From: Escherichia coli
GTDB lineage: Bacteria > Pseudomonadota > Gammaproteobacteria > Enterobacterales > Enterobacteriaceae
Length of the DNA stretch: 64,000 bases
Assembly: GCF_965641715.1 (NCBI RefSeq)
Contig: NZ_OZ282453.1
Reading direction: 5' to 3' (one strand)
Shown: in pieces, positions 35,305 to 59,489 of the stretch
Position numbering within the stretch: position 1 is the first letter of the stretch
How the letters are laid out: each line of letters starts with the position of its first letter
The notes under the pieces: generated by a model
Seen by the model: only the letters and a program-made list of their open reading frames with translations
Database searches by the model: none
What the model was told of the DNA's origin: nothing
Translations under genes and position numbers: made by a program

Positions 35305-37866
35305 TTACACCAGACTCTTCAAGCGATAAATCCACTCCAGCGCCTGACGCGGGGTGAGTGAATCCGGATCGAGGTTTTCCAGTGCCTCGACCGCAGGCGA
35401 GGTTTCTTCCGGTACGGACAGCAAAGACATTTGCGTACCATCCACTTGCGTAGCGGCGGCGTTCGGCGAAATGCTTTCCAGCTCACGCAGTTTTTGCCGT
35501 GCGCGCTTAATAACCTCTTTTGGCACGCCGGCCAGAGCTGCAACCGCCAGGCCGTAGCTTTTGCTCGCCGCGCCATCCTGCACGCTATGCATAAAGGCAA
35601 TGGTGTCGCCGTGCTCCAGTGCATCGAGATGCACGTTGGCGACGCCTTCCATTTTCTCCGGTAACTGGGTCAGCTCGAAATAGTGGGTGGCAAACAGCGT
35701 CAACGCCTTAATCTTATTCGCCAGATTTTCCGCGCACGCCCATGCCAGTGACAGACCATCGTAAGTGGACGTTCCACGCCCGATCTCATCCATCAATACC
35801 AGACTATATTCGGTGGCGTTATGTAAAATATTGGCGGTTTCAGTCATCTCCACCATAAAGGTTGAGCGCCCGGAAGCCAGGTCATCTGCCGCGCCTACGC
35901 GGGTAAAGATGCGATCGATAGGTCCAATCTCGACTTTTTGTGCCGGTACATAGCTGCCGATGTAGGCCATCAGCGCAATCAGTGCGGTCTGGCGCATATA
36001 GGTACTTTTACCGCCCATGTTCGGGCCGGTAATAATCAACATCCGGCGCTGCGGTGACAGATTCAGCGGGTTGGCGATAAATGGCTCGTTCAGCACCTGT
36101 TCAACCACCGGATGGCGGCCTTCGGTAATGCGAATGCCCGGTTTATCAATAAAGGTCGGGCAGGTGTAGTTCAGGGTATAGGCCCGTTCCGCCAGGTTCA
36201 CCAGCACGTCGAGTTCCGCCAGCGCGCTCGCGCTCTGTTGCAACGCTTCCAGATGCGGCAACAGCAGGTCGAACAGCTCTTCATAAAGCTGTTTTTCCAG
36301 AGCCAGTGCTTTGCCTTTTGAAGTGAGGACTTTATCTTCGTACTCTTTTAGCTCTGGAATGATGTAGCGCTCGGCGTTTTTCAGCGTCTGGCGACGCATA
36401 TAGTTGATAGGTGCCAGATGGCTTTGCCCACGGCTGATTTGAATGTAGTAGCCGTGCACCGCATTAAAGCCAACTTTTAGCGTGTCCAGGCCGGTACGTT
36501 CACGCTCGCGGACTTCCAGACGCTCCAGATAATCGGTCGCGCCGTCAGCCAGCGCGCGCCACTCATCCAGCTCTTCGTTATAGCCCGATGCGATAACACC
36601 ACCGTCGCGTACCAGCACCGGCGGTGTGTCGATGATTGCTCGCTCCAGCAGATCGCGCAGCTCGGCAAACTCGCCCATCTTCTCACGTAGCGCCTGTACC
36701 GGTGCACTATCGACAGTTTCTAACTGCGCACGCAGCTCCGGCAGTTGCTGGAAAGCGTGGCGCATACGGGCCAGATCGCGTGGGCGAGCAGTTCGTAAAG
36801 CCAGACGTGCCAGAATACGTTCCAGGTCGCCGACCTGACGCAGTACCGGCTGTAGCCCGGCGGTGAAATCCTGCAATGCGCCAATAGTTTGCTGGCGCTC
36901 AAGCAACACGCGGGTATCGCGCACTGGCATATGCAGCCAGCGTTTCAGCATACGGCTGCCCATCGGCGTGACGGTGCAGTCGAGCACAGAAGCCAGCGTA
37001 TTTTCCGCACCACCCGCCAGGTTCTGGGTGATTTCCAGATTACGACGCGTCGCGGCATCCATAATGATGCTGTCCTGCTCACGTTCCATGGTGATGGAAC
37101 GAATATGCGGCAGAGTCGTACGTTGGGTATCTTTCGCATACTGCAACAGACAACCGGCAGCACAAAGTCCGCGCGGCGCGTTCTCGACGCCAAAACCGAC
37201 CAGATCGCGAGTGCCAAATTGCAGATTCAACTGCTGGCGCGCGGTGTCGATTTCAAACTCCCACAGCGGGCGACGGCGCAGGCCGCGACGGCCTTCAATT
37301 AACGACATTTCAGCAAAATCTTCTGCATACAGCAATTCCGCAGGATTAGTGCGTTGCAGTTCTGCCGCCATCGTTTCCCGGTCAGCCGGTTCGCTCAGGC
37401 GAAAACGCCCGGAACTGATATCCAGCGTCGCGTAGCCGAAACCTTTGCTGTCCTGCCAGATAGCCGCCAACAGGTTGTCCTGACGCTCCTGCAACAGGGC
37501 TTCATCGCTGATGGTGCCTGGCGTAACGATACGCACAACTTTGCGCTCAACCGGACCTTTGCTGGTCGCCGGATCGCCAATTTGTTCGCAGATGGCAACG
37601 GACTCTCCCTGATTCACCAGTTTGGCGAGGTAGTTTTCCACCGCATGGTAGGGAATCCCCGCCATCGGGATCGGCTCTCCCGCTGAAGCGCCGCGTTTGG
37701 TCAGTGAGATATCCAGCAGTTGCGACGCACGTTTTGCGTCGTCATAAAACAGTTCGTAAAAGTCACCCATCCGATAAAACAGCAGGATCTCGGGATGCTG
37801 GGCTTTCAGCTTGAGATACTGCTGCATCATTGGCGTATGGGCGTCGAAATTTTCTATTGCACTCAT
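35305..37866 (-). CDS. mutS: DNA mismatch repair protein MutS (853 aa)
   Basis: 853 aa, N-terminus [40 protein letters not shown]; Walker [10 protein letters not shown]. Confidence 0.98.
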
Positions 37867-44850: not shown

Positions 44851-44890
44851 TGTCGATGATGTCGAAATGACACGTCGACACGGCGACGAA
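44851..44890. promoter_or_regulatory. Candidate FhlA upstream activating sequence in hyp/hyc intergenic region
   Basis: tgtcgatgatgtcgaaatgacacgtcgacacggcgacg with repeated TGTCGA / GTCGACA half-sites; related copies at 45502..45557 and 58817..58854. Confidence 0.5.
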
Positions 44891-45451: not shown

Positions 45452-45501
45452 GCTGAGGCTTTGCCCGTTTTGCAGGCGTTACGCCTGTTTGGGGATGGGC
45501 G

Positions 45502-45557
45502 TGTCGATGAGTGTCGAAAATGACATTTCATCGGCATGTTTTCGTCAAAAATGACAA
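45502..45557. promoter_or_regulatory. Candidate FhlA upstream activating sequence in hycA-hycB intergenic region
   Basis: tgtcgatgagtgtcgaaaatgacatttcatcggcatgttttcgtcaaaaatgaca; first 25 bp nearly identical to the element at 44851. Confidence 0.5.
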
Positions 45558-51982: not shown

Positions 51983-52389
51983 GTGAAAAGGTGGTGTTCA
52001 GTCAACTGAGCCGTAAATTTATTGATGAGAACGATGCCACGCCCGCCGAGGCGCAGCAGGTGGTCTATTACAGCCTGGCGATTGGTCACCACCTTGGGGT
52101 TATCGATTGCCTGGAAGCGGCGCTCACCTGCCCGTGGGATGAATATCTGGCATGGATTGCCACTCTGGAGGCGGGCAGCGAAGCCCGCCGCAAAATGGAA
52201 GGTGTGCCGAAATATGGTGAGATCGTCATCGACATTAACCATGTGCCGATGCTGGCCAATGCATTCGATAAAGCCCGGGCAGCGCAAACTTCGCAGCAGC
52301 AGGAATGGAGTACAATGCTGTTAAGTATGCTGCATGATATTCATCAGGAAAACGCCATCTATTTGATGGTGAGGAGACTGCGTGACTGA
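51979..52389 (+). CDS. hycH: Formate hydrogenlyase maturation protein HycH (136 aa)
   Basis: 136 aa, N-terminus [19 protein letters not shown]; overlaps hycG stop. Confidence 0.93.
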
Positions 52390-52852: not shown

Positions 52853-52894
52853 TTCTTCATCAGGGAATTCAGGGAATTGAACATCAGAACAGGG

Positions 52895-53650
52895 ATGTGC
52901 GCTTTTTTATTGAGCTTAGTGCAGCCTGCACAGGCCACCAGCTTTACCGAATATCTGCCAATGAGTGGCAGCGAATATGCGCAAAAGCGGGCGCTGAAAC
53001 CTCTCCTGACCATGCCTTATTATACCGAGCAAACTTGGCATTTTAGAAAAATCGGCGTTGCTGGCGTGACGCTTGAGAAGATGCCAAATGAGGAGGATTA
53101 CTGGCAATTAACCGCTAAAGACCGCGCCGGTAAATCCTGGACGGTGCCAGTGGGGTTGCTGGCAAATATGGCGGGCAAAGGGCAGCTCTATCGCGCCGAT
53201 CTGGATCGTAACGGCATTCAGGATCTGGTTATCTGGTTGCCAAGTGCCGCTAATGGTCTGGCGCCCTATGCACATTTAATCCTCATGACGTTCACGCGCG
53301 AAGGCCGTCCCTGTGTCTTTGAACCCTGGGGATTCTACACCGCAAACAAAACTGGCGTAGATGATTTGCTGGATTTGCAAGGCAATGGTCACACGCAATT
53401 GCTGGATATGCAGTTTAATTCTGGTTACTGGATAACCAGTCTGTATCAGGTAAAAGACGCCAAATGGCAGCGTGTTCACGGCTGGTTTGGCAAGTTAAGC
53501 TATCCCGCGCTCACGCGATTTACTTATACCCCCAACCGTAAACTCGTCCTCAAACCCATCGCCGGACGCGACCCGCAAACGGAAGATCTGGCGCTGACGC
53601 AGCGTTGCTTGATAAAGGGGGATGTGCTTGATGGGGTGAACCAGAACTGA
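52895..53650 (+). CDS. Hypothetical exported protein (about 251 aa, predicted signal peptide)
   Basis: ORF 52877..53650 with TTG start; more likely ATG at 52895 giving MCAFLLSLVQPAQA|TSF (signal-peptide-like, AQA cleavage motif); two D-x-D/Q-x-N-G repeats (DLDRNGIQDLV, DLQGNGHTQLLD); no family recognised. Confidence 0.65.
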   Translation: MCAFLLSLVQPAQATSFTEYLPMSGSEYAQKRALKPLLTMPYYTEQTWHFRKIGVAGVTLEKMPNEEDYWQLTAKDRAGKSWTVPVGLLANMAGKGQLYRADLDRNGIQDLVIWLPSAANGLAPYAHLILMTFTREGRPCVFEPWGFYTANKTGVDDLLDLQGNGHTQLLDMQFNSGYWITSLYQVKDAKWQRVHGWFGKLSYPALTRFTYTPNRKLVLKPIAGRDPQTEDLALTQRCLIKGDVLDGVNQN

Positions 53651-53703
53651 CTTTTTGCAGAGTGGCTATGTGGATTTTGGGGGTAATTATATAGCGCACA
53701 AGT

Positions 53704-53741
53704 GTTTACATATTGTGAACTTGGATTTGATGAGCTATAGT
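53704..53741 (+). promoter_or_regulatory. Candidate promoter with overlapping operator palindrome upstream of higB-like gene
   Basis: Imperfect inverted repeat GTTTACA-tat-TGTGAAC (53704..53720) overlapping a TTGTGA -35-like hexamer, 17-bp spacer, then TATAGT (53736..53741); about 70 bp upstream of toxin ATG. Confidence 0.35.
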
Positions 53742-53811
53742 TTCCGAACACATAAGGATAGAACTCGCAGATGTGGCTGTTTACTTACTATAAGGAAGTT
53801 AAAACTTAAAA

Positions 53812-54123
53812 ATGCACATCATTTCTAAAGCGCCATTTGAAGAGTGTGCGCGCAAATATCCTAACGACGCTCTGGCTCTACACTCATTGTATCGGGTTAT
53901 TAAGGAAACGGATTTTTCTACACCAGAAGAAATGCGAACGGCGTTTCCCAACCTCGACAATTTTAGATATCGCAACAAATGGTACGTTCTGGATGTCGGC
54001 GGGAACAATCTTAGGGTTATTGCCTACATAAACTTTGTTAATAAGCGGTTCTTTGTGAAGCACATAACGAATCACGCAGAGTATGACAAACTGACACGTT
54101 ACTACAGAGAGAACAAAGAATGA
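53812..54123 (+). CDS. HigB-like type II toxin (RelE/ParE superfamily mRNA interferase, 103 aa)
   Basis: 103 aa; shares the HigB pattern FPNLDNF.Y....YVLDVGGNNLRVIAY...........KHITNHAEYD with K-12 HigB as recalled; stop overlaps downstream ATG (ATGA). Confidence 0.8.
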   Translation: MHIISKAPFEECARKYPNDALALHSLYRVIKETDFSTPEEMRTAFPNLDNFRYRNKWYVLDVGGNNLRVIAYINFVNKRFFVKHITNHAEYDKLTRYYRENKE

Positions 54124-54539
54124 CTGCTAATGCTGCACGCGCTGTTAAAGCAACAAGAGAACTGGTCAATGCAGTCCCCTTTCTGGGAGGCAGTGACTCA
54201 GAAGATGATTATCGTGAAGCACTGGAACTGGTCGAATATTTGATTGAAGAAGATGACACCAATCCACTTATCGACTTTCTGGCGAGCCGCATTGCAGAGT
54301 ATGAAAACAACAACGAAAAGTTTGCAGAGTTCGACAAAGCCGTTGCGGCAATGCCGGTTGGCGTGGCGTTACTTCGCACGTTGATTGATCAACATAATCT
54401 GACCTATGCGGATTTGAAGAACGAAATCGGCTCTAAATCCCTGGTCAGTCAGATTTTGTCTGGACAACGATCCCTGACAATATCCCACATTAAGGCACTT
54501 TCAGCCCGATTTGGCGTTAAGCCGGAATGGTTTCTTTGA
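54120..54539 (+). CDS. HigA-like antitoxin (HTH XRE-family, 139 aa)
   Basis: 139 aa; VPFLGGSDSEDDYREALELVEYLIEED...NPLIDFLASRIAEYE...EFAEFDKAVAAMPVGVALLRTLIDQHNLTYADL...IGSKSLVSQILSGQRSLT parallels HigA; translationally coupled to toxin. Confidence 0.8.
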   Translation: MTANAARAVKATRELVNAVPFLGGSDSEDDYREALELVEYLIEEDDTNPLIDFLASRIAEYENNNEKFAEFDKAVAAMPVGVALLRTLIDQHNLTYADLKNEIGSKSLVSQILSGQRSLTISHIKALSARFGVKPEWFL

Positions 54540-54574
54540 TTTTGACTGATGCCAAACCCCAGATAGCCCGATGC

Positions 54575-54650
54575 GCAGTGCTTATCGGGCCTGCATAGTT
54601 CGTGCGACATGTAAGCCGGATAAGGCGTTCACGCCGCATCCGGCACGGTT
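54575..54650. repeat. REP/BIME element pair between higA-like gene and ascB
   Basis: gcccgatgcgcagtgcttatcgggcctgc and gccggataaggcgttcacgccgcatccggcac palindromes. Confidence 0.6.
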
Positions 54651-54652
54651 AC

Positions 54653-57611: not shown

Positions 57612-57717
57612 TGCTGAAACGGAATTAAGAAACCGGTTTCACAAAATCATGAATAGTTGTCACCAAATAAGCAAGAGAGTTAATTGTTCATTTTTTATAT
57701 TTGTGAAACCGGTCACC
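57612..57717. promoter_or_regulatory. ascF promoter region with two LacI/GalR-type operator-like palindromes (candidate AscG sites)
   Basis: GAAACCGGTTTC perfect 12-bp palindrome at 57629..57640 and GTGAAACCGGTCAC at 57704..57717; also GCTGAAACGG at 57613. Confidence 0.45.
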
Positions 57718-57802
57718 TGAATATTTTTCCCGCCGATTGCGCAAGGACAATCGGCAAACGGTGCAGTACACTGCGTTGATTGCGTGTAAAGGGATGAAAA
57801 TG

Positions 57803-58813
57803 ATGACGACGATGCTGGAAGTGGCGAAGCGCGCCGGGGTTTCAAAAGCGACCGTTTCCCGCGTGCTTTCAGGTAATGGCTACGTCAGCCAGGAGACTAA
57901 AGATCGCGTGTTTCAGGCGGTAGAAGAGAGCGGTTACCGCCCAAATTTGCTGGCCCGCAATCTGTCGGCGAAAAGTACCCAGACGCTGGGGCTGGTAGTG
58001 ACTAACACGCTTTACCACGGCATTTATTTTAGTGAATTACTGTTTCATGCCGCGCGAATGGCGGAAGAGAAAGGGCGGCAGTTGCTATTGGCAGATGGTA
58101 AACACAGCGCCGAAGAAGAGCGCCAGGCGATTCAGTATCTGCTGGATTTGCGCTGCGACGCCATTATGATTTACCCGCGTTTTTTAAGTGTGGATGAGAT
58201 CGATGACATCATTGACGCGCACAGTCAGCCGATAATGGTGCTTAATCGCCGCCTGCGCAAAAATAGCAGCCATAGCGTCTGGTGCGATCATAAACAGACC
58301 AGCTTTAACGCCGTGGCAGAGTTGATAAACGCCGGGCATCAGGAGATTGCTTTCCTTACTGGCTCGATGGATTCCCCCACCAGCATTGAACGTCTTGCCG
58401 GGTATAAAGACGCGCTGGCGCAGCATGGTATTGCTCTCAATGAAAAACTTATCGCTAACGGTAAATGGACGCCCGCCAGCGGGGCCGAAGGTGTAGAAAT
58501 GTTGCTCGAACGTGGGGCTAAATTTAGCGCGTTAGTTGCCAGTAACGACGATATGGCGATAGGTGCGATGAAAGCGTTACACGAGCGCGGCGTAGCGGTG
58601 CCAGAGCAGGTGTCAGTTATCGGATTCGATGATATCGCAATTGCCCCCTACATCGTTCCGGCGCTCTCCAGCGTAAAAATTCCGGTGACTGAGATGATTC
58701 AGGAAATTATTGGACGGCTGATTTTTATGCTCGATGGCGGGGATTTCTCACCGCCGAAAACCTTCAGCGGAAAACTGATCCGCCGCGACTCACTCATTGC
58801 TCTTTCGCGATAA
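57803..58813 (+). CDS. ascG: LacI-family repressor of asc operon
   Basis: ORF 57737..58813; likely start near 57794-57803 giving MTTMLEVAKRAGVSKATVSRVLSG (HTH); periplasmic-binding-protein-like effector domain. Confidence 0.93.
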   Translation: MTTMLEVAKRAGVSKATVSRVLSGNGYVSQETKDRVFQAVEESGYRPNLLARNLSAKSTQTLGLVVTNTLYHGIYFSELLFHAARMAEEKGRQLLLADGKHSAEEERQAIQYLLDLRCDAIMIYPRFLSVDEIDDIIDAHSQPIMVLNRRLRKNSSHSVWCDHKQTSFNAVAELINAGHQEIAFLTGSMDSPTSIERLAGYKDALAQHGIALNEKLIANGKWTPASGAEGVEMLLERGAKFSALVASNDDMAIGAMKALHERGVAVPEQVSVIGFDDIAIAPYIVPALSSVKIPVTEMIQEIIGRLIFMLDGGDFSPPKTFSGKLIRRDSLIALSR

Positions 58814-58826
58814 ACATTGTCATCAC

Positions 58827-58860
58827 ATGTCATCGTCACTAGTGTCGATGACATCTTTTT
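58827..58860 (+). terminator. Inverted repeat followed by T-run after ascG: candidate terminator and/or FhlA-type site for hydN
   Basis: TGTCATCG-N10-CGATGACA followed by TCTTTTTT; contains TGTCGATGACA, which resembles the hyc/hyp UAS motif. Confidence 0.45.
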
Positions 58861-58961
58861 TCCTGCATTACAGAAATTAATTTCCTTAAATAACAGCAAA
58901 TTAAAAACTGGCATGATTTGTGAATGTATCGGCGCATTAACTGTCATTGCTGGAGAATTTG

Positions 58962-59489
58962 ATGAACCGTTTCATCATTGCTGACGCGAGTAAATGTATT
59001 GGTTGCCGTACCTGTGAAGTGGCGTGCGTGGTTTCTCATCAGGAAAATCAGGACTGTGCATCGCTGACCCCGGAAACATTTTTACCGCGTATCCATGTCA
59101 TTAAAGGTGTGAACATTTCCACGGCGACAGTTTGCCGTCAGTGTGAAGATGCACCGTGCGCTAACGTCTGCCCGAATGGTGCTATCAGCCGTGATAAAGG
59201 GTTTGTTCATGTGATGCAGGAACGTTGCATTGGTTGCAAAACCTGCGTTGTGGCTTGCCCGTATGGCGCGATGGAAGTGGTGGTACGTCCGGTGATTCGC
59301 AACAGCGGCGCAGGGCTGAATGTACGGGCTGACAAAGCCGAAGCCAATAAATGCGACCTGTGCAACCATCGTGAAGATGGTCCGGCGTGTATGGCGGCTT
59401 GCCCGACTCATGCGCTGATTTGTGTCGATCGTAATAAACTTGAACAACTGAGCGCAGAAAAACGTCGCCGTACGGCGCTGATGTTCTAA
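58962..59489 (+). CDS. hydN: Electron transport protein HydN, 4Fe-4S ferredoxin (175 aa)
   Basis: ORF 58947..59489; start giving [22 protein letters not shown]; multiple CxxCxxCxxxCP motifs. Confidence 0.93.

Follow-up and report, generated by a model that had tools for sequence, protein, structure and literature searches.

A conserved palindrome between ascG and hydN as a predicted FhlA enhancer of the sigma-54-dependent hydN-hypF promoter in Escherichia coli

HypF is needed for the maturation of all [NiFe] hydrogenases, and the control region of the hydN-hypF operon therefore matters for hydrogen metabolism and for biohydrogen engineering. The two genes are co-transcribed, depend on FhlA and formate and belong to the formate regulon, for which reviews cite Maier, Binder and Böck 1996 (PMC11841067, PMC4987338); their dependence on FhlA is also listed in PMC3844500. 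Sigma-54 occupancy has likewise been reported. The 17-mer CTGGCATGATTTGTGAA ahead of hydN is letter-identical to the sigma-54 ChIP-seq site OS26, which was assigned to hydN (Bonocora et al. 2015, PMC4591121), and a gSELEX peak of the sigma-54 holoenzyme lies in the ascG-hydN spacer (PMC8743547). In Salmonella, a ChIP-chip sigma-54 site, TGGCACGATTCGTGTATA, has been described for hydN, and a promiscuous activator induces hydN-hypF 13-fold (PMC3844500). We take both the occupancy by sigma-54 and the dependence on FhlA and formate from the literature; the sigma-54 motif and the membership of hydN in the formate regulon are established knowledge and no discovery of this work. For FhlA, an idealised consensus, CATTTCGTACGAAATG, is available (Leonhartsberger 2000, quoted in PMC4987338).

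Here, we analysed a 64-kb stretch of E. coli DNA (64,000 nucleotides, referred to as “the window”) with the gene order fhlA, hypEDCBA, hycABCDEFGHI (on the opposite strand), ascB, ascF, ascG, hydN, hypF and norW. An earlier note on this DNA had proposed that a single element behind ascG might both terminate that gene and serve as the activator site for hydN-hypF. Our analysis leads us to predict, with good though not complete confidence, that a palindrome in the ascG-hydN spacer, together with an additional half-site, is the UAS (enhancer) at which FhlA acts on the known sigma-54 promoter of hydN-hypF.

The ascG-hydN spacer and its palindrome

The spacer between ascG and hydN is 148 bp long and contains both the palindrome and the sigma-54 motif (Table 1). 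When 401 bases around the element were compared with 5426 complete E. coli genomes, 5425 of them gave a match, with 100% identity to several O157-type genomes; in about 700 of the 5426, the BLAST match stops short of the 3' end of ascG. As the spacer is single-copy in these 5425 genomes, its identity as a repeated element (REP or IS end) was rejected. Searching Rfam with a 1-kb region returned no family at E <= 1, and a full-text literature search with the palindrome arm sequences returned unrelated primer matches only.

Elsewhere in the window, the distance from the hycI stop to the ascB stop is about 1.8 kb (52853-54652), compared with 124 bp in the O157 strain FDAARGOS_293. This segment carries ORFs for a 257-aa protein without a Pfam match (52877-53650) and for a 139-aa HTH_3 protein (54120-54539), and it looks like a strain-variable islet. 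In an asc-less E. coli, an HTH gene sits between hycI and hydN.

The inverted repeat TGTCATCG-N10-CGATGACA, noticed earlier just after the ascG stop, was located at 58828-58853; it is the sole match in the window, even when three mismatches are allowed. The palindrome extends beyond this repeat by one position on either side, its two halves, ATGTCATCGTCACT|AGTGTCGATGACAT, being complementary at 13 of 14 positions (58827-58854); a C and six T residues come next. In front of it lies a third half-site, absent from the earlier note, which contains a further direct copy, TGTCATC (58818-58824), and appears in other genera as CGTCGTCA or CGACA. The sequence GTC[A/G][T/A]CA of this half-site is conserved (alignment columns 3-9), pairs beyond column 9 are not complementary, and no complementary partner was found downstream of it. 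An unpaired half-site of this sort agrees with an array of protein sites and not with a hairpin.

Table 1. Coordinates, within the window, of the features of the ascG-hydN spacer and of the related hyc/hyp control regions
Feature	Position	Strand	Remarks
ascG	57803-58813 (stop codon TAA, 58811..58813)	+	stop codon 14 nt 5' of palindrome and 4 nt 5' of third half-site
Third half-site, TGTCATCA	58818..58825	+	direct repeat of left arm, 10 bp upstream
Near-perfect palindrome of 28 bp, ATGTCATCGTCA-CTAG-TGTCGATGACAT	58827..58854		proposed FhlA enhancer (UAS)
Palindrome parts	left arm 58828-58838, spacer 58839-58842, right arm 58843-58853		11 + 11 bp with 4-bp spacer
Inner core, TCGTCA-CTAG-TGTCGA	58833..58848		fits TCGWCA-N4-TGWCGA
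T6 run	58856..58861	+	3' of palindrome, after C; K-12 has GTTTTT
IHF-like site (putative), TAACAGCAAATTA	58891..58903	+	within conserved AT-rich block (58885-58907)
Sigma-54 promoter, CTGGCATGATTTGTGAA	58908..58924	+	-24 GG at 58910-58911; -12 element TGAA instead of TGCA
hydN coding sequence	58962..59489	+	first gene of hydN-hypF; ribosome-binding site GGAG 58952-58955; ATG 58962
hypA-hycA intergenic enhancer region, ATGTCGATGATGTCGAAATGACACGTCGACACGGCGACGAAA	44849..44893		TGTCGATGA and TCATCGACA common to it and the hydN palindrome
hycA-hycB intergenic blocks, GTGTCGATGAGTGTCGAAAATGACA and TTTCGTCAAAAATGACA	45500..45557		conserved across 7 genera

Conservation, promoter spacing and shared motifs

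For comparison, one genome per species was scanned, which yielded 80 hydN loci from about 20 enterobacterial genera; pair statistics refer to 71 distinct sequences. In 75 of the 80 loci, and across about 20 genera, the arms of the palindrome hardly vary; this is the strongest evidence against chance. Every arm position is conserved to at least 90%, the 4-bp spacer to 60-70% and the T-run to 30-50%. The consensus of the 71 sequences reads TGTCATCG[T/A]CA-N4-TG[A/T]CGATGACA, with the loop and the T-run unconserved, and seven of the 14 symmetric pairs never vary.

This conservation is independent of the neighbouring gene. The palindrome is present without ascG in Salmonella arizonae and diarizonae, E. 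albertii, Intestinirhabdus and Cedecea, the last with a symmetric variant; the ascG-less loci that carry it are L007, L010, L012, L015, L057 and L066 of our set. In the asc-less E. coli AVS0467 (L085, 2520-2548), one of the genomes in which the BLAST match does not reach into the 3' end of ascG, the left arm has an A instead of a T, which renders the palindrome perfect (TGTCATCGACA-CTAG-TGTCGATGACA), and the T-run is kept. As the upstream gene is divergent in this strain, nothing there needs termination, and yet the palindrome has been retained.

The sigma-54-like motif TGGCAT-N5-GTGAA, which had been called weak and placed about 50 bp before hydN, lies at 58909-58924 (TGGCAT at 58909-58914), 53 bp 5' of the hydN ATG, and corresponds to the published site OS26. 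A TGG[CA] element occupies the -24 position of the hydN promoter in all 80 loci scanned. The -12 element is correctly spaced from it, and in E. coli it reads GTGAA, with GA in place of the canonical GC. Of the 80 loci, 41 have TGAA as the -12 element, 10 have TGTA and 29 have the canonical TGCA. The non-canonical forms occur in Escherichia, Salmonella, Citrobacter and Enterobacter, the canonical one in Klebsiella, Raoultella, Kluyvera and others. Directly upstream, the conserved AT-rich block may be an IHF site: TAACAGCAAATTA deviates from the consensus WATCAANNNNTTR at two positions here and matches it exactly in Trabulsiella and Superficieibacter, and the hyc and hydN promoters have the IHF-like arrangement ATCAA-N4-TTAAAAA-N-TGGCA in common. 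The transcription start site of hydN is predicted at about position 58935.

The centre of the palindrome is 68 bp before the -24 TGG, which places it at about -95 relative to the predicted start. An FhlA enhancer would be expected some 70-150 bp 5' of a sigma-54 promoter and on a constant face of the helix, and the palindrome agrees with this. Its distance from the -24 TGG, taken from the centre, falls into two classes, 57-60 bp (30 loci) and 67-70 bp (50 loci); none of the 80 has a distance of 61-66 bp. The two spacing classes are one helical turn apart, as a face-of-helix constraint would predict, and this is the signature of an activator that has to bind on one particular side of the helix.

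The likeness to the hyc/hyp UAS, which had been remarked upon earlier, is borne out by two words. The first, TGTCGATGACA, occupies 58843-58853; the second, TGTCGATGA...TGACA, is present in two intergenic regions, that of hypA-hycA (44851-44873) and that of hycA-hycB (45502-45525). The hyc/hyp blocks are conserved in Salmonella, Citrobacter, Klebsiella, Enterobacter, Pseudocitrobacter and Lelliottia. Between hycA and hycB, TGTCGA-N3-GTGTCGAAAATGACA is near-invariant, and TTTCGTCAAAAATGAC is invariant save for one A/G position. When at most one mismatch was allowed, the core motif TCGWCA-N4-TGWCGA had three matches in the window as opposed to 0.35 expected, namely the hydN palindrome (an exact match), the hycA-hycB region and one site inside the fhlA coding sequence. 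A single match was also present 5' of fdhF and another 5' of hyfA (0 expected in either region), so that the hydN element is related to control regions of operons reported to be FhlA-dependent (hycA-hycB, fdhF and hyfA). The 9-mer TCATCGWCA occurs six times in the window (0.85 expected), with four of the six copies in the control regions of hydN, hypA-hycA and hycA-hycB.

Upstream of hyfA in K-12 (L086, 185-200), the sequence GCGACAC-GG-GTGTCGA shares its inner architecture, CGWCAC-NN-GTGWCG, with the hydN palindrome, and it is situated about 102 bp before the hyf sigma-54 TGG. Additional copies of TCATCGACA are found at 36627, inside an 853-aa ORF (35305-37866) that we take to be mutS from its position beside fhlA, and at 52226, inside hycH. 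These copies, as well as the fhlA-internal copy of the core motif (40561, one mismatch), are probably due to chance. Among the 80 loci, the other matches to the core motif comprise two to three orthologous positions inside ascG plus one unplaced match in locus L075. An adjacent sigma-54 site is absent from them, save for two of the ascG-internal matches, which were flagged with one downstream; these extra matches were treated as chance and not as real sites.

The published consensus CATTTCGTACGAAATG does not describe the hydN site: no match with three or fewer mismatches exists anywhere in the window, and the best half-site match in the hydN region is 6 of 8 positions. As the hyc and hyp regions also fail on it, with 9-11 of 16 positions at best, the consensus is not diagnostic and was rejected as a test.

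Terminator-like features and alternative readings

The earlier note had further regarded the repeat as resembling a rho-independent terminator. With 14 bp between the end of ascG and the palindrome, the repeat forms part of ascG transcripts as their 3' hairpin, and in Escherichia the element could have a dual use, acting as the FhlA enhancer in the form of DNA and, in the form of RNA, as an efficient Rho-independent terminator that ends ascG and insulates hydN-hypF from read-through. Such dual use is compatible with the enhancer reading and, if true, would mean that one sequence serves at two levels, as DNA and as RNA; we hold it to be possible, though rather doubtful. In its favor, the RNA of the palindrome folds with -13.1 kcal/mol (z = -3.8), a stability reached by none of 200 shuffles, and a U6 run begins 1 nt after the stem (CUUUUUU, compared with CGUUUUU, a G-interrupted U5, in K-12). 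By an approximate form of the d'Aubenton-Carafa discriminant, the site ranks 43rd among 1478 T-rich candidates in the window (top 3%). Hairpins at ascG-linked loci have longer stems and are more stable than those at ascG-less loci (means of -18.3 and -13.0 kcal/mol, respectively), although this difference is confounded by phylogeny, and covarying flanks (see below) preserve the pairing of the stem. However, the discriminant itself is below zero (d = -14.8), whereas nine canonical terminators, the only sites of the window to do so, score above zero, and a terminator scan did not call the palindrome with its T-run. The stem (9 bp plus 2 bp) is rich in AU and is interrupted by a U-U mismatch. At least six T residues in the 8 nt after the palindrome are found in only 7 of 64 ascG-linked loci as opposed to 6 of 10 ascG-less ones; a tie of the T-run to the presence of ascG is unsupported by these counts, and the run is unconserved outside Escherichia, Salmonella and a few other loci. 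Moreover, both T-run and palindrome are kept in an E. coli strain having no co-directional upstream gene, and the searchable Term-seq and 3'-end supplements (PMC7815308, PMC12207403) contain no entry for ascG, for hydN or for K-12 coordinates 28382xx.

These results suggest that: any terminator role is at most weak and lineage-specific; and the notion of one element doing both, if it applies, would be limited to Escherichia-like lineages. We conclude that termination of ascG at the palindrome is weak if it takes place at all, is limited to such lineages, and is not the reason for the conservation of the element. Thus, of the two roles proposed earlier, the activator site has gained comparative evidence, while the hairpin followed by U6 looks like a terminator whose function is at most a possibility.

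The FhlA-type repeats between hycA and hycB (45500-45546) form a 39-nt hairpin (-20.3 kcal/mol) with TTTTCGTC behind it, and their discriminant, d = -6.4, ranks 15th among the 1478 candidates. Here, for a second time, an enhancer-type inverted repeat with a terminator-like appearance lies directly 3' of a co-directional stop codon.

The positions flanking the core (58825-58826 and 58855-58856; columns 10-11 and 38-39 of alignment A2) covary and stay complementary, the pair being GC/GC, TC/GA, CC/GG, GG/CC or GA/TC in different genera. The covariation score is 0.092 compared with 0.034 in shuffles, and none of 500 shuffles reaches it, although such a control is known to over-call on related sequences; slid controls do not exceed 0.041. 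In addition, three loci and asc-less E. coli have a compensatory A-T pair in place of the internal T-T mismatch found in E. coli. A protein site alone would not predict this covariation, which is a hint that the palindrome is also shaped by the formation of a hairpin or by mutation templated from one arm to the other. Two explanations may apply: selection for a hairpin, be it an RNA 3' end or a cruciform; or quasi-palindrome mutation in which one arm templates the other. An extended form of the first explanation, which we regard as unlikely, would make the enhancer a functional nucleic-acid hairpin as well. FhlA would then read the invariant core as double-stranded DNA, and the covarying flanks would be kept for folding, whether into an ascG mRNA 3' hairpin (for termination or stabilisation) or into a DNA cruciform, so that ascG transcription and FhlA occupancy would interfere mutually. 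If this were true, expression of a beta-glucoside repressor gene would be coupled to the formate regulon, and the enhancer hairpin with its T-run behind the stop codon between hycA and hycB would be a second instance.

Other readings replace FhlA, or replace the enhancer altogether. The palindrome might be bound by a different activator, such as the paralogue HyfR or another regulator, its likeness to FhlA sites reflecting a shared site family. The best architectural twin of the inner core is indeed found upstream of hyfA, in the operon that encodes HyfR, and the palindrome misfits the published FhlA consensus; but hydN-hypF is listed as FhlA-dependent in both E. coli and Salmonella, and the core also matches the classical FhlA targets fdhF and hycA-hycB, making another activator improbable. 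That the palindrome is only a terminator or 3' stabilising hairpin of ascG, with a coincidental likeness to the hyc/hyp enhancers, would account for a hairpin 14 nt after the ascG stop followed by a T-run. We give this very little credence, as an RNA hairpin would tolerate compensatory drift whereas the arms are invariant in sequence in about 20 genera, and as the element is kept where ascG is absent, is phased relative to the sigma-54 promoter, comes with an unpaired third half-site and is followed by a T-run that is unconserved. Finally, the palindrome adjoins ascG and could be conceived of as an operator at which AscG, a LacI/GalR-type repressor, acts behind the gene that encodes it. The ascF-ascG control region has a LacI/GalR-type palindrome, TGTGAAACCGGTCAC (57697-57724), that is unrelated to the hydN sequence TGTCATCGTCA, and genomes without ascG retain the hydN palindrome; this reading was rejected as next to impossible.

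The predicted FhlA enhancer and known systems

The anatomy of the element, its conservation, its phasing and the motifs that it has in common with other reported FhlA targets are direct observations, and FhlA is expected to bind the palindrome. From the sequence comparisons, the enhancer reading is strongly supported, with arms that are invariant with or without ascG, helical phasing and a core common to fdhF, hyfA and hycA-hycB. Counted against it are the poor fit to CATTTCGTACGAAATG, the flank covariation and the lack of the canonical GC in the E. coli -12 element. According to the proposed mechanism, formate-activated FhlA would oligomerise on the repeats, which are centred some 95 bp 5' of the start, and the AT-rich, IHF-like block would bend the DNA, perhaps with the involvement of IHF. 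FhlA would contact the sigma-54 RNA polymerase in the closed complex on CTGGCATGATTTGTGAA and hydrolyse ATP, the promoter would open, and hydN-hypF would be transcribed. In Escherichia, the T-run beside the hairpin may constitute a weak intrinsic-terminator-like signal, a lineage-specific by-product or add-on and not the purpose of the element.

As the hydN promoter and its dependence on FhlA are textbook knowledge, the finding adds little, and an enhancer belonging to a promoter already described is nothing new in kind. The contribution is twofold: a sharply defined candidate enhancer, consisting of a palindrome of 11 + 11 bp and a third half-site with a spacing quantised by one helical turn; and a working motif, TCGWCA-N4-TGWCGA, that is cleaner than the idealised consensus in reviews.

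With E. coli Rho-independent terminators, the hydN element has in common a stem-loop just 3' of a stop codon and a U-run directly after it. It differs from them in its AU-rich stem with a U-U mismatch, in a discriminant below the threshold and in a U-run that is not conserved with ascG; unlike terminators, its arms are invariant in sequence. An architectural parallel is found in the adjacent locus, where the NorR enhancer of norVW, three GT-N7-AC sites for a GAF-domain activator, serves a sigma-54 promoter. The hydN site likewise has repeated units, two inverted half-sites and a third, direct copy, but motif and regulator differ, and only for NorR have all three units been shown to be required.

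Like the FhlA enhancers of fdhF, hypA-hycA, hycA-hycB and hyfA, the hydN palindrome lies about 80-105 bp upstream of the start, and its centre (about -95) is comparable in position to that of fdhF (about -103). The hydN palindrome and these enhancers all have repeats containing GTC/GAC. The hydN site departs from the published FhlA consensus, and the TT(T) found between TGTCAT and CGACAC in the hyc sites is missing from it. It adjoins the stop of an upstream gene that is unrelated, and its palindrome is much cleaner and longer than the described enhancers. It shares the inner core, with one mismatch at most, with fdhF, hyfA and hycA-hycB, the word TGTCGATGA with both hyc sites and, with hyc, the IHF-like ATCAA-N4-TTAAAAA block directly 5' of TGGCA.
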